DNA of 22,560 nt. It comes from Candidatus Thorarchaeota archaeon SMTZ1-45 (GTDB taxonomy: Archaea; Asgardarchaeota; Thorarchaeia; Thorarchaeales; Thorarchaeaceae). The number at the start of each line of letters is the position of its first letter. Within the stretch, counting starts at the first letter, position 1. Positions 321-20,291 of this stretch are shown piece by piece. The notes beneath the pieces are model-generated. The model was given only the letters and a program-made list of their open reading frames with translations. It was not told the origin of the DNA and did not search any database. The position numbers were made by a program, and so were the translations under genes. The stretch lies in assembly GCA_001563335.1 (NCBI GenBank), contig LRSL01000035.1, positions 1 through 22,560 on the forward strand, in the 5' to 3' direction.

Positions 321-358
321 CAGAAGCACACACCCAAATTAATGTAAACTAGAGATTT

Positions 359-398
359 GGCAGGTAAACATTCCTGCCCTTCTCTTTCTCTTTTTCTC
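359..398 (+). terminator. Hairpin plus pyrimidine tract after the first binding-protein gene
   Basis: GGCAGG(359-364)-TAAACATT-CCTGCC(373-378) followed by CTTCTCTTTCTCTTTTTCTC. Confidence 0.65.
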
Positions 399-477
399 AG
401 CATATAATTAAATTACTACGCGAGTCGAAGAGCTTAAGACAGGCAATATATTCCAAAACAGGAAATTGGTGTAAGAG

Positions 478-1488: not shown

Positions 1489-1500
1489 GGTGAAGAAGAA

Positions 1501-2769
1501 ATGTCTCAACAATCTAAGGCAATCAGCGGCGTCTTTTATTTCCTCATACCAAATACTGGTGATTGGAAGGAAAAATCTCGTAATTTCCTCATTGGACTAG
1601 CGGTTGTATTAATCGGGTCACTTCTGATTGTTGCAACCTTCATAGGTCTCTCCGTTCGTTCGAATAGCGGAATCGGTCTCTGGGTTATTGGATATACCAT
1701 TCTCTGTGCGTTTGTCATACTTCTTTCAAGCGCTTATAGGAGGTACAAAATATCCGAGAACCGGATGACTCCAAGGAGAGGTTGGTTGTTTATTGTAATA
1801 GTTTTCATAATAATAGGATTCGTTTCTGCAATGGTTGGATTCTTTTGGGTTCCAGAAAGCGAAGGGAGTCTATCTTCAGCTCTAGTCTTGGGAGGAACAG
1901 TTCTTGGCATCATTGTTATTCTCCTTTATGAGGGCTATCCACTACTGGAGGATAGAGGGTCTCCGGGATATGTCACTCTAGCAGGTCTATTGATTGTGTT
2001 CGCTGTCGTATATATGACTGCAGTTTCTTGGTGGATTGTACCATTCGACCCAACAGAACTGGATGTTGGACCCTATGGTGCTCCCCCGTCGGACCGGTTC
2101 CCACTCGGTACAACATCACTTGGGCAAGATCTATTGAGCAGAACTATTGCTGGTGGAGGCATAATGCTGCAAGTTGCAGTATTATCGGTCATAGTCTGTT
2201 TTTCAATTGGAGTTCCATTAGGCCTCGGAGCATCATATAGAGGTGGCTCAACTGACAAAGTTTCTTCTCTTATTATGGACAGCATCTTTGCTTTTCCAGG
2301 CTTGGTTCTGGCAATTGCCATCGCTGCAATGCTCGGTCCGGGAGTGGCAAATATGGCTCTTGCAATTGCTGTTGTGTATATACCCTCATACTTCAGAGTG
2401 ATTCGAAGTCAAGTTCTAACTATAAAGGAGCTTCCATATGTAGAAGCAGCTATTGTTTTGGGAGCGAGGGACAGAGATATTCTATTTCGATACATATTAC
2501 CTAACGTGCTCCCCTCAGCTGTTGTAGTAATGTCAATCAACTTCGCTGATGCAGTGTTAACTGCAGCGGGTTTAACTTTCGTTGGTCTAGGATTACCTGT
2601 AGATGTTCCAGATTGGGGATGGGATTTAACATTTGGTTCCCATCAGTATATTGCTGGAAAGTGGTGGGTAATCTCGTTTCCAGGGTTAATGATTGTGATT
2701 CTTGCTCTTGGATTCACATTAGCAGGTGAAGGATTGAACGAAGTACTAACGCCAAAACTAAAGGAGTGA
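1501..2769 (+). CDS. dppC: Peptide/nickel ABC transporter permease (DppC/OppC) with an extra N-terminal 4-TM domain
   Basis: PLGTTSLGQDLLSR, DSIFAFPGLVLA, YVEAAIVLGA, ILPN, PDWG and GEGLNEVLTPK motifs. GAGGTGA RBS overlaps the dppB stop. About 150 extra hydrophobic residues precede the core. Confidence 0.93.
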   Translation: MSQQSKAISGVFYFLIPNTGDWKEKSRNFLIGLAVVLIGSLLIVATFIGLSVRSNSGIGLWVIGYTILCAFVILLSSAYRRYKISENRMTPRRGWLFIVIVFIIIGFVSAMVGFFWVPESEGSLSSALVLGGTVLGIIVILLYEGYPLLEDRGSPGYVTLAGLLIVFAVVYMTAVSWWIVPFDPTELDVGPYGAPPSDRFPLGTTSLGQDLLSRTIAGGGIMLQVAVLSVIVCFSIGVPLGLGASYRGGSTDKVSSLIMDSIFAFPGLVLAIAIAAMLGPGVANMALAIAVVYIPSYFRVIRSQVLTIKELPYVEAAIVLGARDRDILFRYILPNVLPSAVVVMSINFADAVLTAAGLTFVGLGLPVDVPDWGWDLTFGSHQYIAGKWWVISFPGLMIVILALGFTLAGEGLNEVLTPKLKE

Positions 2770-2775
2770 TATAGG

Positions 2776-3804
2776 GTGACTGTGCTTCTTAGAATACAGA
2801 ATTTAACAGTCGAATACAAAACTCGGAGAGGTACTGCCAGAGGAGTTGATAATGTATCACTTGAGCTTGAGGAAAACCGAACACTTGGATTAGCTGGGGA
2901 AAGTGGTTGTGGCAAAAGCACGCTCGGTAGGTCGATAATGAAATTAGTTCCATACCCTGGTCAGATCGTCAGTGGTCGTATAGAGATGCTTCTTCATGAT
3001 CATGTCAAGTATCTGAAAGGCGTGATAGAGAGAGGCATTGTAAACATCATTGATCTAAATGAGGATCAGATGAGAGGCCTTCGAGGTAAAGAGATAGCAT
3101 ATATCTTTCAAGACCCGATGACGTCTTTGAATCCAATGATCACAATTGAAACACACTTTAAAGAGATAATGAAGGCACATTATCCAGACATTGAAGAAGA
3201 GGAGATAATTGGAAGAGCATACGAAATTCTAGATGGTCTTGGAATTTTGCCTGAGAGAATTACAGACTATCCTCATCAGTTTAGTGGCGGGATGAGACAA
3301 CGTGTAATGATTGGACTTGGACTTGCGCTGCGGCCAAAACTACTGATAGCTGATGAACCTACAACATCCCTTGATGTGATTGTGGAAGCTCAGATACTTG
3401 AGGAGGTAGCTGAACTAAAGGATGTGTTCAATCTCACAATGATTCTCATCACTCATAATCTTGGTGTATTAGCTCAAACAGCAGATGACATAGCCATAAT
3501 GTATGCTGGAAGAGTAATGGAACTCTCTTCCACCGAATCACTTTTCGATGATCCGTTACACCCCTATGCTAAAGCACTTCTGGAATCAGTCCCAGATGTG
3601 ACCCATCCAGAGAAAAAACTATCATGGATTCCAGGCGCACCTCCGGATTTAACTGATCCCATACCAGGTTGCATGTACAATCCAAGATGTCCGCATGCAA
3701 TGGATATCTGCAGGACAGTTCAACCAGACTTAATCACGGTTGATGGGGGTAGGCTTGTGGCGTGCCATCTTTTTGGAGGAGAGAAATCACATGGCACTAG
3801 TTGA
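2776..3804 (+). CDS. dppD: Peptide ABC transporter ATPase (DppD/OppD)
   Basis: Walker A GESGCGKS, Q-loop IFQDP, signature FSGGMRQR, Walker B LLIADEPTT, H-loop ITHN, C-terminal HPY...GCxxxPRC...C...CH domain. GTG start. Confidence 0.95.
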   Translation: MTVLLRIQNLTVEYKTRRGTARGVDNVSLELEENRTLGLAGESGCGKSTLGRSIMKLVPYPGQIVSGRIEMLLHDHVKYLKGVIERGIVNIIDLNEDQMRGLRGKEIAYIFQDPMTSLNPMITIETHFKEIMKAHYPDIEEEEIIGRAYEILDGLGILPERITDYPHQFSGGMRQRVMIGLGLALRPKLLIADEPTTSLDVIVEAQILEEVAELKDVFNLTMILITHNLGVLAQTADDIAIMYAGRVMELSSTESLFDDPLHPYAKALLESVPDVTHPEKKLSWIPGAPPDLTDPIPGCMYNPRCPHAMDICRTVQPDLITVDGGRLVACHLFGGEKSHGTS

Positions 3805-4774
3805 AGTCAGAAATATCAAGAAATACTTCCCAGTAACGAAGGGAATTATTGACGCTCTATTAGCGCGAGAAGAGGAGTTCGTAAGAGCCGTGGATGGTAT
3901 CTCCTTTGAGATTGAAAAAGGAGAAGTTCTTGGACTTGCTGGGGAGAGTGGATCAGGCAAAACAACAACTGGAAGATTGTGTGTCAGACTTATCAGACCA
4001 ACTGAGGGAGAAATCATCTACAATGGGAAAGACATTGCAAAACTGAAAGGAAAGGAGCTACGTTCTATACGCAGGCGAATCCAATTCACATTCCAAGATC
4101 CTACATCCTCTCTCAATCCAAGACTCAAGATTGGAGATGCAATTGGAGATGCACTCAGACTTCAAGGTATTGGCTCAACTGAAGAGAGGAAAGAACGTAC
4201 TGAAGATGTGCTCGAACGTGTTGGTCTCTCGCCAGCCAAATCATTCTACAATAGACTGCCTCACCAACTTTCTGGAGGACAAAAACAACGTGTTGTTTTT
4301 GGAAGAGCAATAATTCTCAATCCGGAATTTGTAGTCACAGATGAGCCTGTGGCTATGGTTGACGTGTCGATTAAGGCTCAAATCCTCGACCTGATGATGG
4401 ATTTAAAGAAAGAGCTTGATCTAACATATCTGTTCATCTCACATGATCTTGCTACCTCAAGGCATGTATGTGATAGGATTGCAATAATGTATCTTGGAAA
4501 AATAGTTGAAGTAGCGGATAAAGATCGTATCTATGAAGATCCTCTTCATCCATATGCAGTTGGACTTATGAGTGCGATTCCAATTCCTGATCCCAAAGTA
4601 AAGAAGACAGAAGCCGTTCCTCGAGGAGAAATTCCAAGTCCAATCAATCCACCAAGTGGTTGCAGATTTCACCCTAGATGCCCAAAAGTCTTTGAAAGAT
4701 GCCCTAATGAGGAACCAGAGCTTAGAAACCTAGGTAATGGAAGACAAGTCGCATGTCACTTATATGATTACTAA
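3791..4774 (+). CDS. dppF: Peptide ABC transporter ATPase (DppF/OppF)
   Basis: GESGSGKT, FQDP, LSGGQKQR, TDEPV, ISHD, HPY and GCRFHPRC...VACH. Start moved from 3740 to ATG 3791 because of GGAGGA at 3775-3780; overlaps dppD by 14 nt. Confidence 0.95.
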   Translation: MALVEVRNIKKYFPVTKGIIDALLAREEEFVRAVDGISFEIEKGEVLGLAGESGSGKTTTGRLCVRLIRPTEGEIIYNGKDIAKLKGKELRSIRRRIQFTFQDPTSSLNPRLKIGDAIGDALRLQGIGSTEERKERTEDVLERVGLSPAKSFYNRLPHQLSGGQKQRVVFGRAIILNPEFVVTDEPVAMVDVSIKAQILDLMMDLKKELDLTYLFISHDLATSRHVCDRIAIMYLGKIVEVADKDRIYEDPLHPYAVGLMSAIPIPDPKVKKTEAVPRGEIPSPINPPSGCRFHPRCPKVFERCPNEEPELRNLGNGRQVACHLYDY

Positions 4775-6649: not shown

Positions 6650-8224
6650 TTGACAAGTGTTCAAACTCAAATATCAAAGGTTACGGTATTTCGGGATGCT
6701 GCGCGAGTGACAAGAACAGGAAAGGTCAAACTTGAACCAGGCCCACACAAGGTTTTGGTCACAGGAATCACTAATTATGCTCAGGTAGATAGTTTTCGTG
6801 TCAAGGGTCGAGGACCAGCGAAACTATCAAGTATCGACGTACAAAGTGCATCAGAGGTCTTTGAACCTTCAGCAAACATCAAGCCACTGTATGATGAGCT
6901 GAAGGACTTGGAGAAGAAAAGAATCGGTATTCAAGATGAGATCGAGTTTCAACAAAACAGGTTTGTTCAAGTCAATAATATGGTTTCTGAATTTTCCAAT
7001 CATTTTGGTATGGTCTATGCTGCAAATGAGGGAGACATAAAATCACTAAACGAGATGGATAGAAAATCAATCAAACTTGTGAGTGAAATTCAACTTGAAA
7101 TTCGGAAGCTGAATGAAGAGCTTGAAGAATTGGATGGTAGAATGCAAGTACTAAGAGATAATATTGGTAGAATCAATTCAGAAAGGAGAACAGTTTCAAC
7201 ATATACAGTTGAGGTGACTTTGGAAGTTTCATCAGCCGCAAATATCGAATTGGAACTAACATATCAGAGTGGAGGAGCATCTTGGACTCCCCGTTATGAT
7301 GTGGATCTGTATCCTGCGAAAGCCAAACTTCGAAGACTAGCAATGGTGGTCAACCGTACTGAGGAAGACTGGAATGATGTGGATTTGATAATCTCCACTG
7401 CTACTGCTCGACCAGTAGAAGCAATTGAGGGCAGACCATTCTTTATCACGGCACATGATCCAACTACTATCGAGAAGGCTTATACAACGACTGGAAAAAT
7501 GGAGAGACGTGCAAAACCATCAGTTGCTCCTGCAGGAGTTGGAGCATTCGCACCTCCAGCACCGCCACCAGAGATAGAGGAGGAATTTGCAGATGCAATT
7601 GAAACAGTTTCTGGGATTGCTGTCTATGAGCTACCAAAGAGGATGACTATACCATCTGACTATGAACAACATCCAGTCACATTGATTGAGGAAAACCTTG
7701 ATTCTTCAACAATACACTATTGGTATGCTGAAGGAATGGCTGAAGTTGTTGCACAAGATAAGGTAGTGAATAACGACAGTGTAATTTTGCCAGGAAAAAT
7801 GAAAGTGTTTTCAGAGGGAGATTATATTGGAGAAACCTCTATCACTCAGATTTCACCTCGAGAGGAGTTCAAAATTGGTACAAGAGTTGCTTATGATGTA
7901 AAAGCAGAGAAAAAGCTTGTTGAACGTGAAATGGAGAAAGCAGGTGTTCTTCGGGGTAAACTCAGGCGTTCCTACAGATACAAACTAGAGATTCAGAATT
8001 TCTCAAAAAGAAAAATAGAGATTGAGGTGTTAGATAGAGTTCCTCACAGCCTAAGTACTGAAATTGAAGTGAAAATTGATTGGGTGAAACTGGCAGCGAA
8101 GAAACATGAACTTGGAGTGATAGAATGGTATAAAGAAATAGAGCCCGATGAAAAGACCAGCATCCAATACAATTACGAGGTGGAATGGGAGAAGGGAGTG
8201 ACGATTAGTCCGCAACTGCCCTAA
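6650..8224 (+). CDS. DUF4140/DUF4139 (mucoidy inhibitor MuiA / TIGR02231-like) protein, copy 1
   Basis: N-terminal ISKVTVFRDAARVTR, DSFRVKG, long coiled coil, LELTY..GASWTPRYD, NRTEEDWNDVDLIISTA, ILPG, IEVLDRVPHS. TTG start with GGGAG RBS. No signal peptide. Confidence 0.88.
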   Translation: MTSVQTQISKVTVFRDAARVTRTGKVKLEPGPHKVLVTGITNYAQVDSFRVKGRGPAKLSSIDVQSASEVFEPSANIKPLYDELKDLEKKRIGIQDEIEFQQNRFVQVNNMVSEFSNHFGMVYAANEGDIKSLNEMDRKSIKLVSEIQLEIRKLNEELEELDGRMQVLRDNIGRINSERRTVSTYTVEVTLEVSSAANIELELTYQSGGASWTPRYDVDLYPAKAKLRRLAMVVNRTEEDWNDVDLIISTATARPVEAIEGRPFFITAHDPTTIEKAYTTTGKMERRAKPSVAPAGVGAFAPPAPPPEIEEEFADAIETVSGIAVYELPKRMTIPSDYEQHPVTLIEENLDSSTIHYWYAEGMAEVVAQDKVVNNDSVILPGKMKVFSEGDYIGETSITQISPREEFKIGTRVAYDVKAEKKLVEREMEKAGVLRGKLRRSYRYKLEIQNFSKRKIEIEVLDRVPHSLSTEIEVKIDWVKLAAKKHELGVIEWYKEIEPDEKTSIQYNYEVEWEKGVTISPQLP

Positions 8225-8236
8225 GGAGGAGAGATG

Positions 8237-9829
8237 ATGAAAGAAATAATGACAAACATAGTTGAAGTCACAGTATTTCGTGACGGTGCAAGAATTATCA
8301 GAATGGGCAGAACTGAACTTGGGCTTGGTGAGCAGATTGTAAAAGTTACAGGGATTACTCGTTATGCTGAACAAGACAGCTTTCGTGTCAAAGGAAAAGG
8401 TAATGCCATTCTTCGAGGAATAGATGTAAAACAAGTTAGTAGGAGCTACGAACCTGAAGGCAATATCAAAGAATTATATGATAAACTCAAAGAACTTGAG
8501 AAAGAACGTGCAGTTATAGAAGATAGATTGCAACTTCAAAGGACTAGGGAAGAGAGAATGAATGTTGTTCTGAATCAGTTCAGCTCTGAATTCGGAAAGT
8601 GGTTTTCCGTTGGGGAAACACCAATGGACCAAATGACAAGAATGGAGAAAACTGGAAGTGAATTGCTTCGTGAATCAAGAAAGACAATTCGTCAACTAGA
8701 AACCGAGCTTGAGAAAATTGATACAGAAATAGCAGCCCTCCATGATAACATCAACAGATTTCAAGGTCAGAGAAGAACAGAAACCGTCAATGAAGTATTT
8801 GTTAGTCTTTATGCAAAGGAAAGTACACAACTCGAATTGGAAATTACATATCAACTAAGAATGGCATCATGGCACCCTACCTATGATATTGATATTGGTG
8901 ATGAAACATCATCCATCAAAAGAATCTGTGTGGTTAGAAACCAGACTCTTGAGAATTGGGAAAATATAGCACTTATAGTTTCTACAGCATCTGCACAACC
9001 AGTTGAAGCGGTTAGACCAAATCCGTTCTATGTTGATGTATACTCTCCACGAGACTATCGAAGAATATCCTCGAGATCATCTGCAGCACCAGCTGAAAGG
9101 ATGAAGAAAGAAATGGACTATGACGATGTTGCAGAAGGATTGATGATGATGGAACCTGAGGAAGAGCCAATGCCTGAAATCATGGAAGACTATGCACATG
9201 CTTCGGAAACCCTTGGAGGAATTACTGTCTATAGTGTTCCTGGAGAGGTTTCGATTCCAGCTGATAATGATCCACACCCGATCACTCTCACACTTGAGGA
9301 GTTTGAATCAAGAAGACTGCACTTCTGGAACGCTTCAGCAATGGCGGAGGTAGTAGCTCAGGATGAAATAACGAATGGAAATGCTGTGCTTCTTCCTGGT
9401 AATGTGAAAGTATATGCTGCGGGTGACTTCATTGGTGAAACGTATCTAGACCTAAAAGCACCGCATGAGAAATTCAGACTTGGCACACGAATCGCTTATG
9501 ATGTAAAAGCAGAGAAGAAACTCGTTGAAAAGGATACAGAGAAAGCAGGAATTACTCGTGGAAAGCAAAAGAGGGGATATAAGTACTCACTCGAGATACA
9601 TAACTTTGGGAAGCAAGAAATTGCAATCAAGGTAGTGGATGTGATACCACATAGCAATTCTGAGAAGATAACAGTAGAACTTACTGAACCAAGTTTACAG
9701 ATACAGAAAGAGGAACTTGGTGTAATTGAATGGGAAACGAAAATTAGAGAAAGTGCAGAATTCAATATTACATATTCCTATGAGGTAGAGTGGGAGAGGG
9801 GTGTAGTCATCAGACCACCACTCCCATGA
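8237..9829 (+). CDS. DUF4140/DUF4139 (MuiA / TIGR02231-like) protein, copy 2
   Basis: IVEVTVFRDGARIIR, DSFRVKG, ASWHPTYD, NQTLENWENIALIVSTA, LLPG, VVDVIPHS. Clear paralog of the upstream gene. GGAGGA RBS at 8225-8230 favours the second ATG (8237) over 8234. Confidence 0.88.
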   Translation: MKEIMTNIVEVTVFRDGARIIRMGRTELGLGEQIVKVTGITRYAEQDSFRVKGKGNAILRGIDVKQVSRSYEPEGNIKELYDKLKELEKERAVIEDRLQLQRTREERMNVVLNQFSSEFGKWFSVGETPMDQMTRMEKTGSELLRESRKTIRQLETELEKIDTEIAALHDNINRFQGQRRTETVNEVFVSLYAKESTQLELEITYQLRMASWHPTYDIDIGDETSSIKRICVVRNQTLENWENIALIVSTASAQPVEAVRPNPFYVDVYSPRDYRRISSRSSAAPAERMKKEMDYDDVAEGLMMMEPEEEPMPEIMEDYAHASETLGGITVYSVPGEVSIPADNDPHPITLTLEEFESRRLHFWNASAMAEVVAQDEITNGNAVLLPGNVKVYAAGDFIGETYLDLKAPHEKFRLGTRIAYDVKAEKKLVEKDTEKAGITRGKQKRGYKYSLEIHNFGKQEIAIKVVDVIPHSNSEKITVELTEPSLQIQKEELGVIEWETKIRESAEFNITYSYEVEWERGVVIRPPLP

Positions 9830-9851: not shown

Positions 9852-11195
9852 CTACCACTTACTCATCTCTTCCATTACTGCTACAATCCTATTCATTGCT
9901 TTTCTGAAATTCTCAATAACGATGCTCTCATTTGGTGAATGTGCTTTTGACTCATAATCACCGCATCCAATAGAAACCATAGGGACATACTTATTGAAGA
10001 GATATAAAGGACCAGAACCGGGACTAGTAGGATGGATGACCATATCACCAAATACACGTTTGTTTGCATTTTCGATTATTTTGACGAATGGATGATTAAT
10101 AGGAGTCTTTGCAGCAGGATATCCCTCAAAGTATGAAAACTTGATGTCAGAGAAGCCTCTGTCATCTAAGTGTTGTCTGAGTTTCTTGTGGATGTCATTT
10201 GGATGCATTCCCTCCACTAGTCTAAAGTCTACCTTGCATGATGCCTTTGCAGGAAGTACTGTCATCGAGCCCTTGCCTTGATATCCGCTCGTAAGTCCAC
10301 AGATGTTACACGTGGGAGTGCCATAGTACGCTTTCTTTAGTTCATCACCGGTAAGACCATTCAGATACTCTTCAATCCCATAGACCTTCTTGAACTGCTC
10401 CTCGTGTAAATCGATTTTCCTGATTGCTTCAAGTTCCGAATCAGTAAGTGGTTTGATGTTTTCATAGAACCCTTCAATCAAGATACGACTTGATTCATCC
10501 TTAAGCGAGTTCAACGCCCAAGTCAGTCTGCTAGCGGCAGATGGAAGTATACAAGCTGTGCTCGAGTGTACATCTCTTGAAAGACGCTGAACCTCGAGCT
10601 CCACAAAGAATATCCCTTTGAGTCCAAGCCAAGCCTCTTGGCGTCCATCAATTCCAGCTCCACCAAATTCCCATATCCCTCCATCAGCAGTGATAAAATC
10701 GGTATTTTTCTCGATATACTCAGGGAGGTGAATACTACCAATCTCTTCTTCACCCTCGATTACAAATCTTACATTGACTGGTAGATCAGTGTTTGTTTCT
10801 TGGAATGCTTTTAGAGTCCATATCCTCGTTGTTATATCACCTTTGTTATCTGCAACGCCTCTACCATATAGTCTATCATTTCGAATCTCAGGTTCGAAAG
10901 GAGGAGAGTCCCAGAGATCAAAGGGTTCAGCAGGTTGGACATCATAGTGGTCATAGAATAGCAGTGTTCGCTTTGCTCCAACATCTTTCCAACCTGTTAC
11001 AACTGGAGCTCCAGAAGTCAAATGCACTTCAGTTTCCAAACCTGCATCTTGAAGCATTTTTTCAACCAAATTGGCAGCTTCCAATAGACCTTCATTTTTT
11101 GCTGCGACCGAAGGAATCCTACAGAGTTTCTTAAGCACTTCAATGGATTCATTCAGCTTATCATCTATGAATTTAATGATAGACTTATTCATCAT
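9852..11195 (-). CDS. M20/M25/M40 family metallopeptidase (dipeptidase/carboxypeptidase-like)
   Basis: Metal/catalytic motifs HYDVQP, YGRGVADNKG, EGEEEIGS, DVHSS, TVLPAKA..KVDFRLV and AHSPNE. The likely start is the ATG-ATG pair at 11195/11192 rather than 11267. Confidence 0.93.
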   Translation of the reverse strand: MMNKSIIKFIDDKLNESIEVLKKLCRIPSVAAKNEGLLEAANLVEKMLQDAGLETEVHLTSGAPVVTGWKDVGAKRTLLFYDHYDVQPAEPFDLWDSPPFEPEIRNDRLYGRGVADNKGDITTRIWTLKAFQETNTDLPVNVRFVIEGEEEIGSIHLPEYIEKNTDFITADGGIWEFGGAGIDGRQEAWLGLKGIFFVELEVQRLSRDVHSSTACILPSAASRLTWALNSLKDESSRILIEGFYENIKPLTDSELEAIRKIDLHEEQFKKVYGIEEYLNGLTGDELKKAYYGTPTCNICGLTSGYQGKGSMTVLPAKASCKVDFRLVEGMHPNDIHKKLRQHLDDRGFSDIKFSYFEGYPAAKTPINHPFVKIIENANKRVFGDMVIHPTSPGSGPLYLFNKYVPMVSIGCGDYESKAHSPNESIVIENFRKAMNRIVAVMEEMSKW

Positions 11196-11326
11196 AATCG
11201 CTTTGAAGAGAATAAGTTCCTCATGATATATTCTCTCTTTCAAGCTCTGTAAATTCGACCAGTTCAAAATCCTAATCGCTATCTATGCAATTAGAAACCA
11301 AAACAAAAACTAGGATCTTTATAGAT

Positions 11327-11374
11327 GGAAAAGAAAAATCCACTTCTGGAGGGAATTCCCTCCATATGAAGTGG
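11327..11374 (-). terminator. Intrinsic terminator-like hairpin of the microprotein gene
   Basis: - strand reads CCACTTC-ATA-TGGAGGG-AATT-CCCTCCA-GAAGTGG-ATTTTTCTTTTCC, starting 12 nt after the stop. It contains a perfect 18-bp palindrome TGGAGGGAATTCCCTCCA (11347-11364). Confidence 0.7.
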
Positions 11375-11386
11375 TTGTTCGCTATA

Positions 11387-11539
11387 TTAGAGATTTACGG
11401 GCCTACAAAGATAGTCTTTGTTGTTTGCTGCACGACCACAAACTTCACAGATGTACTTGGCATCCTTGACCCGTTCTCTCATTTCTTTGACACCGTGGTG
11501 TTTTGCAAACTCACACATGTGATCTTTATGATCTCCCAA
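11387..11539 (-). CDS. 50-aa Cys/His-rich microprotein (putative Zn-binding, CxxCGR...LCxP)
   Basis: Below the ORF-track cutoff. Translation MGDHKDHMCEFAKHHGVKEMRERVKDAKYICEVCGRAANNKDYLCRPVNL*. AGGAGG lies 7 nt before the TTG start (an in-frame ATG at 11545 is only 1 nt from the RBS), a TATA-like CTTATTA at 11590-11584 and a terminator downstream. Confidence 0.85.
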   Translation of the reverse strand: MGDHKDHMCEFAKHHGVKEMRERVKDAKYICEVCGRAANNKDYLCRPVNL

Positions 11540-11712
11540 ATTCATTCCTCCTTAAGGAATATCATTGAAAATAGTTTGTTTTGTAATAAGCATTCAGAAA
11601 GGGTAGTGCTGAAGGTTTATCTGTACCTATAATTTCACACAAAAGAGGGATTTACTTACGACTAGTTAATGAAGTACTGATTATATGCCTCTGCAATATT
11701 GAATGAGAATGA

Positions 11713-12510
11713 GTGATTCCAATGAAGATGCTTGCAGGACCTATGTTCAGCAATGAAGTCCTGGATTCCTTTGCAACGACAAGGACAAAAAAGAAAGGAC
11801 TTCTAAAGAGGGAACCTATAGAGATCTTTGAAATAGGACAGCCAATTATGCGAATTTTTCGTCAAATTGATTTCTATAATGAAGATGACGAATTTGTATC
11901 TACAAGTTTAGTGGATGTTGAGTTAGCTTCATTGGTGAATGCTTTTGAGGAAAATCTACTCCTCTGGCGCCCACTTTATGTAGGTTTAGTTCATGAAGGT
12001 GCACCTTTTGACTTGTCTAGAAATCGACTCGGTCATGATAAAGAAACTCTTGAGACTATTACTAATCAAATGATTAATGTGCGGAAAGCAGCTCAGAAGG
12101 AACTTGAAGAATTCAAAGATGAATTTGCCAAGGTTCAGAGTGATTGGAAATCATCATCAATGTCTCTATTGATTCCTAGATCACCATCTAGTTTAAGGGA
12201 ACAAGATAGACTGGCAAACATTAAGAGAACTGCTGAAGGGATAATAAAGGCGGTATCACTTGTAATCAATTGCCCCTATGATTCCAAGGTCAAATCAACA
12301 GCTATTGGGGAATATGTTTTTGTTCTAACAACTCTAATCAGATACACTAGTATAATAGATGACTCCATTAGAATCATAGCCCTTGAGAATCCTTCTGCTG
12401 AAAACATTGACGATGCTCATATGAAAGGTCGAGCACTCACCAGATTATTAGAGAAAAATCAAGATTGTCAAGATTTTATTATTGGCACAACATACACTAC
12501 TGAAAAGTAA
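11713..12510 (+). CDS. Hypothetical protein (265 aa, soluble, central coiled coil)
   Basis: Long ORF filling the space, TTATAT box at 11681-11686. No recognisable motif. The start may be GTG 11713 or ATG 11722/11728. Confidence 0.8.
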   Translation: MIPMKMLAGPMFSNEVLDSFATTRTKKKGLLKREPIEIFEIGQPIMRIFRQIDFYNEDDEFVSTSLVDVELASLVNAFEENLLLWRPLYVGLVHEGAPFDLSRNRLGHDKETLETITNQMINVRKAAQKELEEFKDEFAKVQSDWKSSSMSLLIPRSPSSLREQDRLANIKRTAEGIIKAVSLVINCPYDSKVKSTAIGEYVFVLTTLIRYTSIIDDSIRIIALENPSAENIDDAHMKGRALTRLLEKNQDCQDFIIGTTYTTEK

Positions 12511-12513
12511 ATG

Positions 12514-12582
12514 CTTAAAGAGCCTAATGTTGTTGTTATCAGCACTTAGGAAAAATGTTTCCTAATAAGTTAGGAAGGAGTA
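12514..12582 (+). promoter_or_regulatory. TATA-like box plus repeat-containing leader and RBS of the second ABC operon
   Basis: CTTAAA at 12514-12519, inverted repeat TTAGGAAA-AATG-TTTCCTAA (12546-12565), and a second TTAGGAA (12570-12576) running into the GAAGGAG RBS. Confidence 0.55.
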
Positions 12583-12585
12583 ACT

Positions 12586-14346
12586 GTGATACGCAGAAAG
12601 AAATTACTTTATGCCCTATTGGCGCTAGCGCTCTTTATTCCATGGGGTGTTATTCCAGTAAACGCACAGCAAGATGCTACTCCAGATCTTTCTTTTGACT
12701 TGTGGGTTCTATCCTGGGATGACATCAGCGTCGACACAGGCGGTGGGATAAGGACACTGCTAGATGAAATAGGGATTGAAATCAACGTCGTGATCAAAGA
12801 TGATGATCCGATGTATGAAGGAATATACCAAGAACCAAGGCAATTTGGCTTATATGAAATGAGCCATGGCTATGGGAGTGTACCTGACCACGTTTGGTAC
12901 AGGATGCACTCAGAGGAAATCATCGATTGGGGTTCCAACTGTTACGGTCTCAACAATGCTACAGTGGATGCCGCATTAGATGACTTCATGACATCAACAC
13001 CCGCTACAGTGGCTGAAGCCGCAAGGCTTGTTCAGCTATATGCTACACAAAACATTCCTTACATTCCACTGTTTCTATCTGATGACACTCATGCTATAAG
13101 GGCAGAGTGGACAAACTACAGTGCGAAACCAGGTGGTGTCTTCACATCATTCAATCCACAGACAATGATCTTCATGTACGATGATACATGGACTTCAGGT
13201 CCGATGGAATTTGTCATGGCATATGGGTCTGATATTGGTGAACTCAATCCGATGTTCTACAGGAGTGAGCGCTCACACTGGTATGATATGCTTGTCTATG
13301 ACACTTTGATATCATTTGATGATAACCTAGATCCAATACCATGGCTTGCTGAAGACTGGGACATCAGTGCAGACGGTACAACGGTGAATTTTACTGTCCG
13401 GTCTGGAGTTCAGTGGCATGATGGTCAACCATTGACAGCTGACGATGTTGCCTTCTCATTCAACTATTGGCAAGATGCTTCAGAAGATGCAGTCTATTGG
13501 GCATTCTTACAACACATGGTCAGTGCGACAGCATATGGTGATGTAGTAAGTATCGTGATGGATGATGCTTGGTCATTTGCTCTGCAGATTCTGGGTTCTG
13601 AAATATACATCCTACCTCAACACATCAGAGAGGGTATCGCTGCAGATGATCCTAGGTGGGATGATCCTGACAATGTGACCGCACACACGGGTTCTGGTCC
13701 ATTCAAGTTTGTTTCAAGAACTCCTGACGAGTTCACGGACCTTGATCGAAATGACAATTGGTGGGGACCAACTAATCCTTACGTCGGTCAACTGCCAAGT
13801 ATCACCGATGTGAGAATTGATGTTATTCGTGGTCAGGATGCTCGAATTCTAGCCATGAGAAACGGAGATGCAGACACAGAACGATACGAAGTGTTTGGAG
13901 CGTATGTCAACACCATTTTAAATGCACCAGAACTCGACCTCGTGACTGGCGTTACTTCACAGTGGGACTATGTCCTTGGTTTCAACACAACATTCCCAGG
14001 CTTTGATGACGTAAATGTCAGGCGAGCAATAAGCCTAGCAATGGACCGACAATACTTGGTCAATGTTGGTCGACTTGGTTTTGGTACTCCTACAAACAGC
14101 ACAATTCCTGCAGATTTCTTCCCATCATACTATCATGAAGATGGAGTCTTTGTGGAAGATGTAGATTTGGCAAAACAGATACTGGATGATGCGGGTTATA
14201 TTGACATCGATAATGATGGTGTCAGAGAGTTTCCAGGTGTTGCTCCACCTCCTCCAGGTATTGATATTGTCTTAATCTTGGGTATCGGTGCTGGAGCACT
14301 GATTGTGGGAGTTCTCGTAACATATGTTTTACTAAGGAAAAAGTAA
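12586..14346 (+). CDS. dppA: Family-5 peptide ABC substrate-binding protein, apparently circularly permuted, with signal peptide and C-terminal membrane anchor
   Basis: Signal peptide MIRRKKLLYALLALALF...VNA/Q. SBP5 motifs VYDTLI..PWLAEDW..SADG..F.VRSGVQWHDGQPLTADDVAFS, GSGPFKF, VRRAISLAMDR and AKQILDDAGY. Ends in a PPPPG linker + TM + RKK. Confidence 0.93.
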   Translation: MIRRKKLLYALLALALFIPWGVIPVNAQQDATPDLSFDLWVLSWDDISVDTGGGIRTLLDEIGIEINVVIKDDDPMYEGIYQEPRQFGLYEMSHGYGSVPDHVWYRMHSEEIIDWGSNCYGLNNATVDAALDDFMTSTPATVAEAARLVQLYATQNIPYIPLFLSDDTHAIRAEWTNYSAKPGGVFTSFNPQTMIFMYDDTWTSGPMEFVMAYGSDIGELNPMFYRSERSHWYDMLVYDTLISFDDNLDPIPWLAEDWDISADGTTVNFTVRSGVQWHDGQPLTADDVAFSFNYWQDASEDAVYWAFLQHMVSATAYGDVVSIVMDDAWSFALQILGSEIYILPQHIREGIAADDPRWDDPDNVTAHTGSGPFKFVSRTPDEFTDLDRNDNWWGPTNPYVGQLPSITDVRIDVIRGQDARILAMRNGDADTERYEVFGAYVNTILNAPELDLVTGVTSQWDYVLGFNTTFPGFDDVNVRRAISLAMDRQYLVNVGRLGFGTPTNSTIPADFFPSYYHEDGVFVEDVDLAKQILDDAGYIDIDNDGVREFPGVAPPPPGIDIVLILGIGAGALIVGVLVTYVLLRKK

Positions 14347-14387
14347 AGGGTAGTAACTACCCTCTTTTTCTCTTTTTTTTATTTTTC
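14347..14387 (+). terminator. Hairpin plus long U tract after the second binding-protein gene
   Basis: AGGGTAG-TAA-CTACCCT (14347-14363) immediately after the stop, followed by CTTTTTCTCTTTTTTTTATTTTTC. Confidence 0.75.
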
Positions 14388-14464
14388 ATCAATGATACTT
14401 AATTCGGTAGTCTTTAATTAGTGGAAACTATCATAATGTTGAAACAGAAATTGGGGAATTTTAA

Positions 14465-15457
14465 ATGGCTGAAAAGGAGAGAAGTAAACCTATCGAGTAT
14501 ATTGCAAAAAGATTGGGGCAGACATTACTAATCTGGTTTCTAATCGTTATCGTTAATTTCTTCTTATTTAGAATAATGCCAGGAGACCCAAGGGGATCTT
14601 TAATAGCTGAACATATGCCACCGGAGGTAGTACAATCAATCGTAGATAGATTCGGTCTTGATAGACCAATTTTGGAGCAATTTTTCATTTATATTGTAAA
14701 TATCTTTAGAGGCGATTTTGGTGAATCTTTTTCACACTTTGGTGAGGATGTATTGTATACTATCTTTGATCATAGATTTTGGAATACTCTATGGCTAATG
14801 GGAGCTTCATTAGTCATATCAATTGCAGTGGGTATGGTCATGGGAGTAGTAGCAGCAGCTCGCAGGGGTTCTAAGACTGATACAGGTTCTACAGTATTCT
14901 TCTTGGTTGCATATAGTATTCCTGTGTTTTGGATCGGTCTACTTCTACTTTTGTTCTTTGGATATCATTTTGACTTGATACCACTTGCAGGAACAATAAC
15001 TCGAGGCTATGCACATGTGAATTTTATTGACTATATTCGGGACTATGGATGGCATATGATAGGGCCAACAATAGTCTTGACACTCTCATTCATTGGTGGA
15101 TTCTATTTAATTATGAGAGATACTGTTTTGGATGTATTTACTCAGGACTTCATGCTTGCAGCAAAAGCAAAAGGTCTCAAAGAAAAAACCATACTGTATA
15201 AACATGCAATGAGAAATGCGATGCTTCCGATGGTTAGTGTTATTGCTGTAAATATCCCATTTCTAATTAGTGGTGCAACAATTACTGAATTTGTATTTAG
15301 TTGGGAAGGAATAGGTCTATTGACATATGATTCGGTGCTAGCTAATGATTATCCAGTTCTTCAAGGGATATTTCTATTTCTAGCAACAATTACTGTATTT
15401 GCGAATTTTGTAGCAGATCTTCTCTATTTGTATCTTGATCCAAGAATTCGATATTAG
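14465..15457 (+). CDS. dppB: Peptide ABC transporter permease (DppB/OppB)
   Basis: RIMPGDP, FGLDRPILEQF, GDFGESF, DFMLAAKAKGL, HAMRNAMLP, EFVFSWEGIG, YLYLDPRIRY. Confidence 0.95.
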   Translation: MAEKERSKPIEYIAKRLGQTLLIWFLIVIVNFFLFRIMPGDPRGSLIAEHMPPEVVQSIVDRFGLDRPILEQFFIYIVNIFRGDFGESFSHFGEDVLYTIFDHRFWNTLWLMGASLVISIAVGMVMGVVAAARRGSKTDTGSTVFFLVAYSIPVFWIGLLLLLFFGYHFDLIPLAGTITRGYAHVNFIDYIRDYGWHMIGPTIVLTLSFIGGFYLIMRDTVLDVFTQDFMLAAKAKGLKEKTILYKHAMRNAMLPMVSVIAVNIPFLISGATITEFVFSWEGIGLLTYDSVLANDYPVLQGIFLFLATITVFANFVADLLYLYLDPRIRY

Positions 15458-15468
15458 GAGGAGAAGAG

Positions 15469-17028
15469 ATGATAGAAGAACAGAAATCAATAGAAATGCC
15501 TGCGGAAGAAAAACAGAAGAAATCTATCAAGAAAAAACTCGATATCGAAGGAAAACCACTTCATTTGATAATAGTATCTCTTGGAAGCTTCGTGATAATT
15601 TCATTACTAATTATCTACGGTGTCGATATGGGAATCACTACGTTAATGAATTGGTTAGCACAATCTATTATCGGATTCGATGCTGCTACAAGCATAGGGT
15701 TCACGACAACAATCCGAGTTATAGGAATAATCATGCTCATCATGACACTATGGATAGGATTTCTTGGAAAGCCTCTTTATGAGAAAAGACCTGCTGAGAT
15801 AGTTCTTATAGTATTGAAACTTTCAATCATTCTATTACTTCTAATTGCTTTTAGTATTGGACTGGCTATAATTACAGCCTTTATCCTGTTTCTCTGGGAT
15901 CCACCCCAACTCAAACATTGGGATACTAATAGGATGACGCAATATCACTTGGCAGTGATTGGAGTAGTAGGCATCTGGATGGTGATAGAATCATTCCTGA
16001 CAGAAGAGATTATTGGATTTAATCTATTGCCATCAGTTATCAATTTATCAATATCTGGTTTCCTGAGAGCAAGTGGTTTCTCTATAATTGCAGTAGGAGC
16101 GGCTTTTATTGTAATTCCATTATACATATTCATTCCAAGATTAATTATGATTACGTGGGATTTGAGAGATGGAATCGAATCATTCTGGCGGGAGTTTGTT
16201 CACGACAAACTTGGATTGGTTGGTTTCTTTCTAATTTCGGGGATTGTTCTAATAGCAGTTCTTGCTCCCTGGATAACGCCATATCATTGGTCATACACTT
16301 CACTCAACCCTAGTGAGTGGTTCCTACCTCCAAGTCTGGAGCATCCGTTTGGCACAAATCACGAAGGTGGAGATATCATGAGTCGTGTGATTTGGGGAGC
16401 CCAGATATCCTTACTTGTTGGATTTACAGCCAGTTTAGTCGCGGTGGTCATTGGGACTCTAGTTGGTCTCATTTCTGGATATTATGGTGGCCTTCTGGAT
16501 TCAGTCCTGATGCGAATTACAGATATGTTTCTCTGTCTTCCAACTCTACCCTTGATGCTGATCTTTCTCATGTTCTTTGGCCAAGGTCTTCAGAATGTTA
16601 TCATTGTCATAGCAATTCTTGGATGGACAGGTACAGCGAGGATGGTTAGAAGTGAAGCGTTGAGTCTAAGAGAACGTCCTTTAACTGAAGCCGCTCATGC
16701 TATTGGAGCATCTGACAATTATATCCTGTTTCGTCATATAATGCCAAACGCACTCCCTCTAATTCTAGCAAATGTCATCATTGGAGTTGTAAATGCAATA
16801 CTCAGCGAGGCGGGAATTTCATTTCTTGGATTCATGCCAATTCATGCTCAACCTAGTTGGGGGATAATTTTGTATTGGGCATCTCGGAAGGCTGCGCTTG
16901 TAAATGAGATGTGGTGGTGGATTTTCCCACCTGGATTGATGATAATGTTGACAACTGTAGGATTTGCATTTGTTAGTCATGCGGCAGATAAAGTTGTAAA
17001 TCCACGGCTTAGAGGGAGGCGTGGATAG
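15469..17028 (+). CDS. dppC: Peptide ABC transporter permease (DppC/OppC) with an extra ~235-aa N-terminal membrane domain
   Basis: The canonical OppC N-motif FWREFVHDKLGLVG appears only at residue ~240, followed by HPFGTNHEGGDIMSR, EAAHAIGAS, HIMPN, PSWG and WWWIFPPG. GGAGGAG RBS. Confidence 0.93.
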   Translation: MIEEQKSIEMPAEEKQKKSIKKKLDIEGKPLHLIIVSLGSFVIISLLIIYGVDMGITTLMNWLAQSIIGFDAATSIGFTTTIRVIGIIMLIMTLWIGFLGKPLYEKRPAEIVLIVLKLSIILLLLIAFSIGLAIITAFILFLWDPPQLKHWDTNRMTQYHLAVIGVVGIWMVIESFLTEEIIGFNLLPSVINLSISGFLRASGFSIIAVGAAFIVIPLYIFIPRLIMITWDLRDGIESFWREFVHDKLGLVGFFLISGIVLIAVLAPWITPYHWSYTSLNPSEWFLPPSLEHPFGTNHEGGDIMSRVIWGAQISLLVGFTASLVAVVIGTLVGLISGYYGGLLDSVLMRITDMFLCLPTLPLMLIFLMFFGQGLQNVIIVIAILGWTGTARMVRSEALSLRERPLTEAAHAIGASDNYILFRHIMPNALPLILANVIIGVVNAILSEAGISFLGFMPIHAQPSWGIILYWASRKAALVNEMWWWIFPPGLMIMLTTVGFAFVSHAADKVVNPRLRGRRG

Positions 17029-17029
17029 A

Positions 17030-18001
17030 TTGCCTATTCTTGAAGTTGAGAGTTTGTCAACCCACTATTACTTGGGTGGTAAACCAGTGAGAGCAGTTGA
17101 GGATGTATCATTCACTATTGATAAACAGGAAACTCTAGGAGTTGCAGGAGAATCAGGATGTGGTAAAACGACTACTGCTTACAGTATCATGAGAATTCTC
17201 CCAGTAAACGGAAAAATAATCGGAGGTAAAGTTCTTCTTGATGGTGAAGACTTGACCACCAAGACAGAAGAACAAATGCGTAAATTAAGATGGAGAAGCG
17301 CTTCAATCGTTTTTCAATATGCTATGAATGCGTTTAATCCAGTGCTCAGAATAGTAGACCAAATCACGGAGGTAATGATGGAAAAATTCAAAGTCAGTGA
17401 AGAAGAAGCAGAGGATATAGTAGCCAATCTATTTGATGAAGTTGGTCTTGAACCATCAAGAATGCGGGACTATCCTCATGAGTTCTCAGGGGGTATGTTG
17501 CAGCGGGCTATAATTGCGCAGGCATTATCTTGTGATCCAAAACTGATTATTGCAGATGAACCTGTGACAGCCCTTGATGTAATTGTACAAAACAAGATTC
17601 TGGATCTTCTCAGAAGTCTACAGAAGAAGTATGATCTTGGTGTTCTCTTCATAACACATGATCTATCTGTTGTGGCGGAAAACTGTGATAGCACTGCTAT
17701 CATGTATGCTGGGAATATTGTTGAAAAAGGGTCTACTTCTAATGTCTTCAAACGAAGTCTTCATCCCTATACATACAAGTTAATTGGTGCGTTTCCAAGA
17801 ATCTCAGGACCAAAGAAACGCCTTGAGTTTATTCCCGGAACTCCTCCAAACCTCCTGAATCCACCACCAGGTTGCAAATTCCATCCAAGATGTCCTTTTT
17901 CCGAGGACATTTGTGCAAATCAAGAACCAGAATATCTTGAGATTAGTCCAAGACACTATGCCAAATGCCACTTTGCTGGGCAATTAAACTTGGGGGGATA
18001 A
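17030..18001 (+). CDS. dppD: Peptide ABC transporter ATPase (DppD/OppD)
   Basis: GESGCGKT, FSGGMLQR, IADEPVTALD, ITHD, HPY and GCKFHPRC...C...CH. GGAGG at 17015-17019 favours TTG 17030 over GTG 17021. Confidence 0.94.
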   Translation: MPILEVESLSTHYYLGGKPVRAVEDVSFTIDKQETLGVAGESGCGKTTTAYSIMRILPVNGKIIGGKVLLDGEDLTTKTEEQMRKLRWRSASIVFQYAMNAFNPVLRIVDQITEVMMEKFKVSEEEAEDIVANLFDEVGLEPSRMRDYPHEFSGGMLQRAIIAQALSCDPKLIIADEPVTALDVIVQNKILDLLRSLQKKYDLGVLFITHDLSVVAENCDSTAIMYAGNIVEKGSTSNVFKRSLHPYTYKLIGAFPRISGPKKRLEFIPGTPPNLLNPPPGCKFHPRCPFSEDICANQEPEYLEISPRHYAKCHFAGQLNLGG

Positions 18002-18003
18002 TT

Positions 18004-18987
18004 TTGGTTACTAGAAAAGACATACTAGAAGTCTATGATTTACAAAAATGGTTTCCAGTTAGATCAGGAATTCTATCATTGTTTGGAGAGAAGAGGTTTG
18101 TAAAAGCGGTGGATAAAGTAAGCTTCAGCATTGAGGAGGGAGACTCTCTTTGTATTGTAGGCGAATCAGGATGCGGAAAAACGACCTTAGCACGTACTAT
18201 TTTGAGATTGATTGAACCAACAGGAGGTAGAGTTCTTTTCCGTGGGGAGGATATTACCAAAAAGAACCGTGAAGAGATGCAAAAACTAAGGCTTAAGATG
18301 CAGATCATTTTTCAGAATCCGTTTGAGGTTCTGGACCCAAGATTGCCTGTACGTACTCTTGTGGGTGAAGCTCTCTCTATTCATAACCTGACCGAGGATG
18401 AAGATGAGTTAGAGAAACGAGTTCTTAAGGTGCTTGAAGATGTTAGACTTATTCCCTCAGATGACTTTGCACAACGATACACTCACGAATTAAGTGGCGG
18501 ACAACTTCAGCGAGTATGCATAGCAAGGTCGTTGATATTAAAACCAGATCTAATTATTGCAGATGAACCTGTTTCAATGTTAGATGCAAGTATCAGAACA
18601 GAAATCATGAACCTCATGGAAGATCTAAAGAATGAGTATGGTCTGACTTACATCTTCATTACTCATGATTTAGCTCAAGCAAGATATATTGGAAATCATA
18701 TCATAGTCATGTATCTTGGGAGAATTGCTGAGATGGGACCAATGGAAGAGGTGATTCAGAATCCTGTGCATCCTTATACAACAGCATTGGTTTCCAATGT
18801 CCCCATCCCAGATCCTGATGAAGAAAGGTACAGAATCATGCTACCTGGAGAAACTCCTACTCCAATTGACCTTCCACCAGGATGTAGATTCCAGCCAAGA
18901 TGTCAAGAATATGGAGAAGGTTGTCGCCCCGAAGAACCCGAACTTCGAGAAGTAGCACCTGGTCATTTTGTTTCATGTTGGAGATAG
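18004..18987 (+). CDS. dppF: Peptide ABC transporter ATPase (DppF/OppF)
   Basis: GESGCGKT, LSGGQLQR, IADEPVSMLD, ITHD, HPY and GCRFQPRC...VSC. Probable TTG start at 18004 after a G6 RBS (ORF track opens at 17965). Confidence 0.94.
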   Translation: MVTRKDILEVYDLQKWFPVRSGILSLFGEKRFVKAVDKVSFSIEEGDSLCIVGESGCGKTTLARTILRLIEPTGGRVLFRGEDITKKNREEMQKLRLKMQIIFQNPFEVLDPRLPVRTLVGEALSIHNLTEDEDELEKRVLKVLEDVRLIPSDDFAQRYTHELSGGQLQRVCIARSLILKPDLIIADEPVSMLDASIRTEIMNLMEDLKNEYGLTYIFITHDLAQARYIGNHIIVMYLGRIAEMGPMEEVIQNPVHPYTTALVSNVPIPDPDEERYRIMLPGETPTPIDLPPGCRFQPRCQEYGEGCRPEEPELREVAPGHFVSCWR

Positions 18988-19070
18988 GGTACTATTTTAC
19001 ATTCGATTGAGATATTGCTCAATCGGACAGACAAATTAATAGAAGTCGCCATATATTAACAGTGTTGGTA

Positions 19071-20291
19071 ATGAATAGAATAATAGTGCTCCTAGCCATT
19101 CTATTAGTGGTTTTTAATCCAACACAGGAGTATCTGTTTACGAATCAAACTCCTGATGAAACAAATCCTATAGCTCCGTGGCCAACAAACGAGTGGAGTA
19201 GAACTACTCCCGAAGCTCAGGGTATGGATTCTACAAAATTGGATTCGATGACAGAGCATTTTAAAAGTAACAAGATTCAGATTGATAGTTTCCTAATCAT
19301 AAGAAATGGATGGATGGTTTATGAAGAGTACCCGTCTAGGTTTGGCCCAGATGATACACATCATCTTTTTTCATGCACAAAAAGCATTATGTCCACACTT
19401 GTTGGCATTTCTTTAGATTTAGGATGTCTCGAATCTATTGAGGCGTCAGTTCTTGATTTCTTTCAGGATTATGATTTCAGTAATCCTAGTAGAAGTAAGG
19501 AGGACATCTCAATCAAGAACCTACTTGAAATGACTACAGGACTATCATGGAATGAAGAGTACTACGGGAATGACATAAACGATTACAATAAGATGGTTCG
19601 ATCAGACGACTGGGTGAAATATGTACTTGATAAACCAATGATTTCTGAACCTGGAAACACTTTTCACTACAACTCAGGTGCTTCACATATTTTGTCTGCA
19701 ATCATTCAAGAAGTGACTCAAAATTCCACACTCAATTTTGCATTGAACAATCTATTCCAACCTCTTGGGATAACTGATTATGAATGGGGTCAAGATCCTG
19801 ACGGAATCTATAGAGGAGCTTCAAGCTTGAAACTGAAGCCTATTGATATGGCTAAGATTGGTTATCTTTACATTAGAAATGGCTTATGGGATGGAATTCA
19901 AGTAGTTCCTCAAGATTGGGTCCAGATGACTTCAACCTCACAGATTCAGGTGGACGAATCAACAGACTATTCATACCATTGGTGGGTCTTGCCAGAAATA
20001 GGAGCATACTACGCTTTTGGATGGGGATATCAGAGTATTACTGTAGTCCCAAACTATGATCTTGTTGTAGTTGTTACAGCAGCAACCCTAGATTCATCTG
20101 TGCAAGTGGGAAATTTCCTTAGAAAATGGATATTCCCATCTCTTGGACTTGAAACTACTGTACACACATCATTTACGATTTCTCCCATTTTCGTTTTGAT
20201 TGGAGGAAGTCCCTTCATCGTTCTTGGAATAGCGTTATTGATGGACAAGAAAGGTCTTTGGTATGAGATTGAAGTTAAGCAGGAAAATTGA
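19071..20291 (+). CDS. Beta-lactamase class C-like / NylB-like serine hydrolase with N-terminal signal and C-terminal TM anchor
   Basis: SxxK motif FSCTKS, LLEMTTGL, PGNTFHYNSG (Y-x-S/N motif), LFQPLGI, DMAKIGYLY..NG.W.G.QVVP..WV. Hydrophobic N-terminus and C-terminal IFVLIGGSPFIVLGIALL. ATG 19071 preferred to GTG 19062. Confidence 0.9.
   Translation: MNRIIVLLAILLVVFNPTQEYLFTNQTPDETNPIAPWPTNEWSRTTPEAQGMDSTKLDSMTEHFKSNKIQIDSFLIIRNGWMVYEEYPSRFGPDDTHHLFSCTKSIMSTLVGISLDLGCLESIEASVLDFFQDYDFSNPSRSKEDISIKNLLEMTTGLSWNEEYYGNDINDYNKMVRSDDWVKYVLDKPMISEPGNTFHYNSGASHILSAIIQEVTQNSTLNFALNNLFQPLGITDYEWGQDPDGIYRGASSLKLKPIDMAKIGYLYIRNGLWDGIQVVPQDWVQMTSTSQIQVDESTDYSYHWWVLPEIGAYYAFGWGYQSITVVPNYDLVVVVTAATLDSSVQVGNFLRKWIFPSLGLETTVHTSFTISPIFVLIGGSPFIVLGIALLMDKKGLWYEIEVKQEN

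Follow-up and report, generated by a model that had tools for sequence, protein, structure and literature searches.

A circularly permuted family-5 substrate-binding protein in an oppBCDF operon of a Thorarchaeota archaeon, with close orthologs in both chain orders

The window described here is the whole stretch of 22,560 nucleotides analysed from contig LRSL01000035.1 of Candidatus Thorarchaeota archaeon SMTZ1-45 (GCA_001563335.1). It harbours an oppBCDF operon whose first gene (12586..14346, + strand) encodes a substrate-binding protein (SBP) of family 5 (cluster C), 586 aa long and with a circularly permuted chain. The gene starts with GTG and consists of a single reading frame without internal stop. 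What we define here as AB is the order of block A followed by block B, BA being the canonical order, B then A. The SBP begins with a probable cleavable signal peptide (residues 1-27, 12586..12666, +), read from the sequence and its hydropathy, which has a basic start and a hydrophobic core without a lipobox Cys. Block A (residues 32-198, 12679..13179, +), the canonical C-terminal third equivalent to residues 357-513 of AppA, is joined by a linker connecting the canonical C-terminus to the canonical N-terminus (residues 199-206, 13180..13203, +) to block B (residues 207-550, 13204..14235, +), which represents the canonical N-terminal two thirds, or AppA 17-356. The chain ends with a proline-rich stalk (residues ~551-560), a predicted transmembrane helix (~561-583), and a basic tail (14236..14343, +). 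Directly 3' of the stop codon lies a terminator-like hairpin with a T-run (14347..14363, +), a weak signal since the hairpin search returned two sites (one hairpin seen on both strands) against 1.2 +/- 1.1 in shuffled sequences; promoter-like sites are at chance level (6 against 5.5).

Downstream, on the same strand, the operon encodes an OppB-like permease (14465..15457; PF00528 and PF19300), an OppC-like permease that carries a long membrane extension at its N-terminus (15469..17028; PF00528 and PF12911), and the OppD-like (17021..18001) and OppF-like (17965..18987) ATPases, both with PF00005 and PF08352. These are followed by a serine hydrolase of the beta-lactamase fold (19062..20291, +; PF00144), which accompanies several AB loci. 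Immediately upstream of the SBP, here as in the majority of the family's AB and BA loci, there is a conserved gene of 265 aa (11713..12510, +), which has syntenic homologs at 25-52% identity and for which no Pfam family reaches its cut-off. A divergently transcribed M20 peptidase (9852..11267, -; PF01546 and PF07687) is likewise kept beside the operon in AB and BA loci. The rest of the window includes two DUF4140/DUF4139 genes in tandem (6650-9829, +) and a second Opp-type operon (3-4774, +), whose binding protein, truncated at the start of the contig, has block A at its end and no transmembrane anchor.

The initial annotation proposed that the motifs of the SBP are rearranged, and the matches of its two blocks to canonical proteins bear this out. 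In the case of Pfam, where two matches in swapped order had been expected, PF00496 matches only once, at residues 250-547 and profile positions 2-287 of 368 (202.1 bits, cut-off 32.4), and it is a block A profile that reveals the swapped order. Built from 32 sequences, this profile has matches in AppA (361-497, E 2.8e-7) and in NikA (338-465, E 0.005). When the SBP is searched against the PDB with phmmer, the best 60 of the 97 matching sequences all fall within block B, residues ~205-550 corresponding to the N-terminal ~335 residues of the NikA, AppA and DppA chains, and Brucella NikA adds a second, sub-threshold segment that places SBP 32-147 on residues 336-449 of its chain. The AlphaFold model of the permuted chain (26-row alignment) has a pLDDT of 81.3 and a pTM of 0.80, with low pLDDT near the linker. 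Aligned separately to AppA with VIA-align, rather than as one whole-domain superposition, residues 202-550 of the full model match AppA 17-356 (Z 22.8, rmsd 3.0, 334 aligned) and block A alone, in a weaker model (pLDDT 62.5), matches AppA 357-513 (Z 10.6, rmsd 5.8, 141 aligned). AppA is the top match for the block A model among 48,161 chains, and the best 50 structural matches of this block are C-terminal parts of family-5 chains, with the exception of the small domain 3noh; block A is not an unrelated domain. These Z scores support the cluster C fold from predicted models, and the fold of the permuted chain is predicted to be intact.

The AppA ranges of the two blocks abut exactly, which locates the cut at AppA 356/357, the surface loop where the annotation had put it. 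The same complementarity is found with the canonical relative P0019, in which SBP 207-554 corresponds to residues 31-378 (69% identity) and SBP 35-206 to residues 379-550 (70%). Two swapped blocks thus cover a canonical relative without overlap, as in natural permutants, and the SBP does not follow the collinear canonical order; neither the best 50 structural matches nor the best 60 of the 97 phmmer matches include a collinear full-length one. The canonical start was correctly read at about residue 207, since M207 is encoded at nucleotide 13204, and the old termini are indeed joined by a linker, residues 199-206, whose length and sequence differ between AB relatives. The second binding protein of the window (3-320), offered as an internal control, partly serves as such: a single-sequence search aligns it with block A (profile 98-148, E 4e-9), where the protein stops, which fits the canonical order, although its gene is truncated by the contig start. 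All the NCBIfam equivalogs considered (Opp4A, NikA, DppA, OppA) score below their curated cut-offs, the best being Opp4A (122.9 bits against 650) and NikA (117.9 against 393). The split block order lowers these scores; block A alone finds no NCBIfam family. Taken together, we regard it as virtually certain that the SBP is a circular permutant of a family-5 binding protein.

Among the best 120 of 584 homologs, at up to ~70% identity, 30 are AB and 90 are canonical BA, and the source labels of the closest ones are mostly Thorarchaeota. Within the same genus, 16 of the 27 other genomes match the SBP: one with an AB gene, 13 with BA genes having both blocks, and two with genes cut by contig ends in which B comes first. 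The neighbourhood formed by the M20 peptidase, the 265-aa gene, the SBP and oppBCDF is identical in AB and BA loci, and this common context makes the AB and BA genes orthologs at one locus. The canonical Thorarchaeota-labelled orthologs (P0019, P0025, and those in the operons of G037, G045 and G046) share ~50-72% identity per block, signal, anchor and gene neighbourhood with the permuted SBP; however, their order is B-A. The source is a metagenome-type assembly of 119 contigs, 87.7% complete, which might raise the suspicion that the permuted order arose in assembly or annotation. Even so, the chance of such an artefact is negligible. The gene is one open frame, the AB homologs come from many assemblies and have diverged linkers, and a related strain's contig from a different run (X4, record 26, 13051-13361) crosses the A|B joint, extending more than 130 bases on each side. 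Contigs of run X1, which may be the window's own source, cover the SBP gene piecewise.

Several observations were made at these related loci. The permeases of the window are nearer to those of AB operons from other genera (OppB 74-80%) than to those of same-genus BA operons (64-71%, full-length matches only), whereas the M20 peptidase shows the reverse, with 58-64% identity to the AB loci of other genera and 73-84% to the BA loci of the same genus. This comparison of window positions 9852-18987 with the same-genus loci L055, L056, L059-L067 and L074-L077 suggests that the SBP-oppBCDF cassette may have been exchanged at a fixed locus. Another contig, of 7.6 kb, carries two divergent canonical paralogs in tandem (L050:3738-7376, G066:C244) and no match to the permease genes of the window. 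Single in-frame stops, which would be errors or signs of pseudogenes, are found in L018:5235-7568, G082:C3 and G178:C284.

The annotation also anticipated similar permutations in other archaea, and AB clusters do occur across several archaeal groups. A profile of AB proteins run against representatives of 50%-identity clusters gave, in its best 150 matches, 148 new representatives: 27 are A-B1-B2, 79 canonical, seven B2-A-B1, 26 have B without a detected A, and nine are fragments or multi-domain proteins. As the profile was built from AB proteins, these counts are not frequencies, and such a sample, with one protein per 50% cluster, could over-represent AB at depth. The labels of the AB clusters include Hodarchaeota, Heimdallarchaeota, Bathyarchaeota, Culexmicrobium, Sulfolobales and one Alphaproteobacterium, many clusters being without a label. 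At the level of the phylum, 41 of 301 genomes match the SBP; outside the window's family there are 14 of them, 12 with an AB protein as best match and two with distant block-B matches only. AB proteins without a C-terminal transmembrane anchor are seen in the P0224 cluster, which has an Alphaproteobacteria-labelled member, and in P0265 and P0150. P0224 and P0265 stand apart on the tree, and their AB order probably has an independent origin.

In order to follow the direction of change, trees were built from block alignments rearranged into one order. At least three order changes are required among 128 close rows and 12 on a tree of 148 rows (40 selected close proteins, together with representatives 500-800 aa long in which each of the three blocks was detected). 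On a 66-row tree, comprising the 61-row clade around the query plus five rows and rooted on two canonical rows, there are eight changes (bootstrap range 8-8), seven of them forced by starred branches for AB. The backbone of this tree is AB, and the canonical rows form five nested islands: P0179, P0143, a Bathyarchaeia/Thermoproteota-labelled clade, P0127, and a 19-row Thorarchaeota-labelled clade. One of these islands contains P0125, which is AB again, so this tree can be read as one re-permutation and as many as five returns to the canonical order. A topology that keeps all AB rows in one group is rejected both with 39 rows (p-AU 9e-45; 27 rows were omitted to save time or because they have a third order) and with 33 hand-picked rows under a mixture model that left out the other canonical islands (p-AU 2e-47). 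On the 33-row tree, eight close canonical rows lie under six nested starred branches whose remaining members are AB, and two changes explain it, a basal gain and a return in these eight rows. When trees are made from A or from B alone, none of their strong splits disagree (17 and 25 splits, of which 13 are common to both). In the permease tree, made from OppB+C+D of 22 loci, the 10 family-level BA operons fall inside the AB operons (99/99), a nesting that depends on one basal AB locus (L014), with an outgroup that is itself BA and with L069 scored as AB from a partial gene whose block B runs into the anchor.

According to these trees of the sampled rows, the backbone of a broad archaeal clade is AB, with the Thorarchaeota-labelled canonical orthologs nested inside it; a single origin of AB without later change is rejected, in agreement with the permease tree. 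The gene of the window would have inherited an ancient permutation. Because they nest within the AB clade, the nearest canonical orthologs are most likely revertants, re-cut at the same loop, and we consider a return to canonical order quite likely. The whole explanation, namely a permuted SBP in an AB lineage with revertant canonical orthologs and a drifting order, is likely as well.

Two other histories have to be weighed against this one. Canonical order could be ancestral throughout, with AB gained many times at one permissive loop and never reversed. The order trees are not polarised for this trait, the AU tests reject only one unchanged AB group, and the probably independent distant AB proteins P0224 (Alphaproteobacteria-labelled) and P0265 indicate that the site is permissive. 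However, this history needs at least six separate gains on successive backbone branches of the 33-row tree, where two changes suffice, and no close canonical gene is found outside the window's family in the 301 phylum genomes, making it improbable. True rearrangements could also have been few, if AB and BA scaffolds coexisted for long and their blocks were replaced separately by homologous recombination. This is most conceivable in a Bathyarchaeia-labelled clade of mixed order, where a metagenome scan with P0125 gave six loci, one AB, four BA, and one partial with B first; together with L015, L019, P0125 and P0126 they are 75-96% identical per block and form a star-like tree. The DNA of the AB gene L078 and the BA gene L079 is 90% identical in the signal region and B1, and 82% in A (Fisher p=0.0004; p>0.4 in four control pairs), which points to block-wise recombination between genes of opposite order. 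Such mosaic identity means that recombination can inflate the rearrangement count, and the true number could be below the eight of the 66-row tree. In addition, the AB linker of this clade resembles deep AB linkers (P0093, P0099, P0131), and the tests do not reject a grouping of L015 with L078, the two AB sequences compared as DNA (p-AU 0.125 and 0.38), for which reasons some flips may be exchange between standing scaffolds. One BA junction type is common to the BA genes of this and the Thorarchaeota-labelled clade, and G063 and G065 carry both orders. Against this, the trees of A and B agree in their deep branches, chain order in the window's family follows the operon as a whole, permeases included, and the BA paralogs beside AB genes (L051, L052) are divergent rather than homogenised. 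Even then, this history would still require that a BA scaffold is nested in AB sequence or has been converted by it repeatedly, and we find it unlikely. Within the same clade, L078-L081, L083, L018, L019, P0125 and P0126 have two repeated domains of ~85 residues, placed after the binding domain and before the transmembrane anchor, present in both orders. L015:1-1884 is one open frame of two apparent parts, which we take to be methylpurine-glycosylase-like and a sugar-type binding protein; their junction may be an assembly slip.

A further possibility concerns the meaning of the order rather than its history: an adaptive re-tethering, in which an anchor on the other lobe alters docking or kinetics and the permeases have co-adapted. 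Presumably the N-lobe holds the canonical C-terminus, and the C-lobe the cut loop; if this is right, the tether changed lobes. The SBP has hydrophobic N- and C-terminal segments, seen in the model and by hydropathy. Contrary to the initial annotation, its C-terminal anchor is not new, as canonical relatives have the same proline-rich stalk and hydrophobic helix (P0019: 53% over 36 aa); what moved is the attachment point, the anchor itself being common to both orders. Among 128 close rows no alignment column separates AB from BA (80%/80% threshold) and 98 positions show at least 97% conservation over AB and BA rows taken together; since no residue tells the orders apart, the proposed change in presentation to the permease is unsupported. 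The stalks are alike, with medians of 11 aa in AB (n=27) and 14 aa in BA (n=82), and both orders occur at 80-92% protein identity within one clade. The permeases of AB and BA operons do group separately, although shared descent explains this grouping. In Mycobacterium tuberculosis DppABCD, DppB recognises the tethered N-terminus, which stable assembly requires, according to the available text of PMC10954201; because the tether site matters there, an effect of chain order on assembly is possible. In Escherichia coli DppABCDF, the scoop motif of DppB inserts into the cleft between the lobes (available text of PMC12136057), a contact that would depend on the fold and not on chain order. Overall, adaptive re-tethering seems improbable.

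The genome of the window also holds permutants with a second cut site. Its nine family-5 ORFs comprise one AB, three B2-A-B1 (C118, L001:7296-9158; C76, L002:7221-9080; C1, L003:6595-8481; all on the - strand of G000), three full canonical, and two cut by contig ends. As in the AB SBP, the three B2-A-B1 proteins are permuted family-5 members with a signal peptide and a C-terminal transmembrane helix; nevertheless, their cut lies near AppA ~205 instead of 356/357. The B2-A-B1 order is kept in 120 of the 120 best homologs of C118, and this family looks stable. In another genome, G109 (C1, C10, C63), profile ranges suggest that all three chain orders are present. The most encompassing reading would take chain order as a reversible two-state trait of a 500-residue, three-domain protein, re-cut several times at one loop since one ancient permutation, with block exchange continuing in one Bathyarchaeia-labelled group and the second cut site giving three rotations in single genomes. 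We put it forward tentatively, at a little under even chances.

As for the route of rearrangement, the mature domain would have been duplicated internally and then trimmed, aided by block-wise recombination between alleles, and the two orders would be close enough to functional equivalence for the order to drift. The Discussion of PMC13552848, as far as its available text goes, likewise gives duplication followed by truncation as a probable route of circular permutation. Tandem B-A-B-A proteins make up six of the 455 proteins examined, all distant relatives. No A-B-A or B-A-B intermediate is found in close relatives, the best 120 of 584 homologs being at most 624 aa long, and a search for longer proteins gave only four distant matches, which is weak evidence. 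An apparent fusion intermediate of 1213 codons, G066:C244, turned out to be the two separate canonical genes in tandem mentioned above. At least two family-5 domains in tandem, some in mixed orders, are found in P0149 (4308 aa), P0264 (2427 aa), P0159, P0170, P0215 and P0122-P0124. No repeat was detected at the three block junctions (12300-14600). The cut might fall where the second pseudo-repeat of the type II fold begins, but pseudo-symmetry as a reason for the site finds no support at sequence level. A cut between sequence repeats was discarded, hhalign comparisons of A with B, B1 and B2 and of B1 with B2 giving probabilities below 2%. For the type II fold, 10.1101/2020.10.19.344861 describes a two-fold symmetry and a possible duplication; its available text mentions circular permutation once, generically.

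Regarding function, the SBP would be exported, tethered by its C-terminal helix, close on its ligand and dock on OppB/C, handing the captured solute to the OppBCDF importer encoded downstream. The neighbouring M20 peptidase and serine hydrolase make peptides the likeliest ligand, and the transport function is probably ordinary. AppA (Bacillus subtilis, PDB 1XOC), NikA, DppA, OppA and CtaP have in common with the SBP the fold made of both blocks, PF00496, and an OppBCDF-type importer. Contrary to them, the chain of the SBP has its first block A position at what is residue 357 in AppA and its last block B position at what is residue 356, at ~23% identity, and bears a C-terminal transmembrane anchor; every solved cluster C protein among the matches listed has the canonical order. 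Natural permutants such as PDZ domains, in four forms, and saposin/swaposin likewise keep the same fold with moved termini (available text of PMC13552848). The main text of that article does not mention periplasmic or solute-binding proteins, nor is a return to ancestral termini described in the text available. In P. syntrophicum, an abundant glycosylated family-5 protein is reported, with no mention of permutation in the available text (PMC11284389). The literature searched, which covered few subscription journals, has no description of natural family-5 permutants, and the CIRPIN database of PMC13552848, with 18.3 million pairs, may include some. In its topology, the permuted SBP is a variant of a known family that has apparently not been described before.

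Circular permutants are usually recognised by comparing distant proteins, in which neither the direction nor the mechanism of the change can still be read. The orthologs of opposite order described here have one operon in common and are ~70% identical as proteins, with as much as ~90% identity of the DNA in one clade, and such closeness makes the neutrality of topology, its reversion, and duplication-deletion versus recombination directly testable. This locus adds evidence for a return to ancestral termini and for short-range mixing of orders. As Pfam and NCBIfam see only part of these proteins, trees and annotations that assume collinearity mis-handle permuted SBPs. At the same time, the natural cut points show where cluster C proteins tolerate new termini, which may be of use in sensor design.
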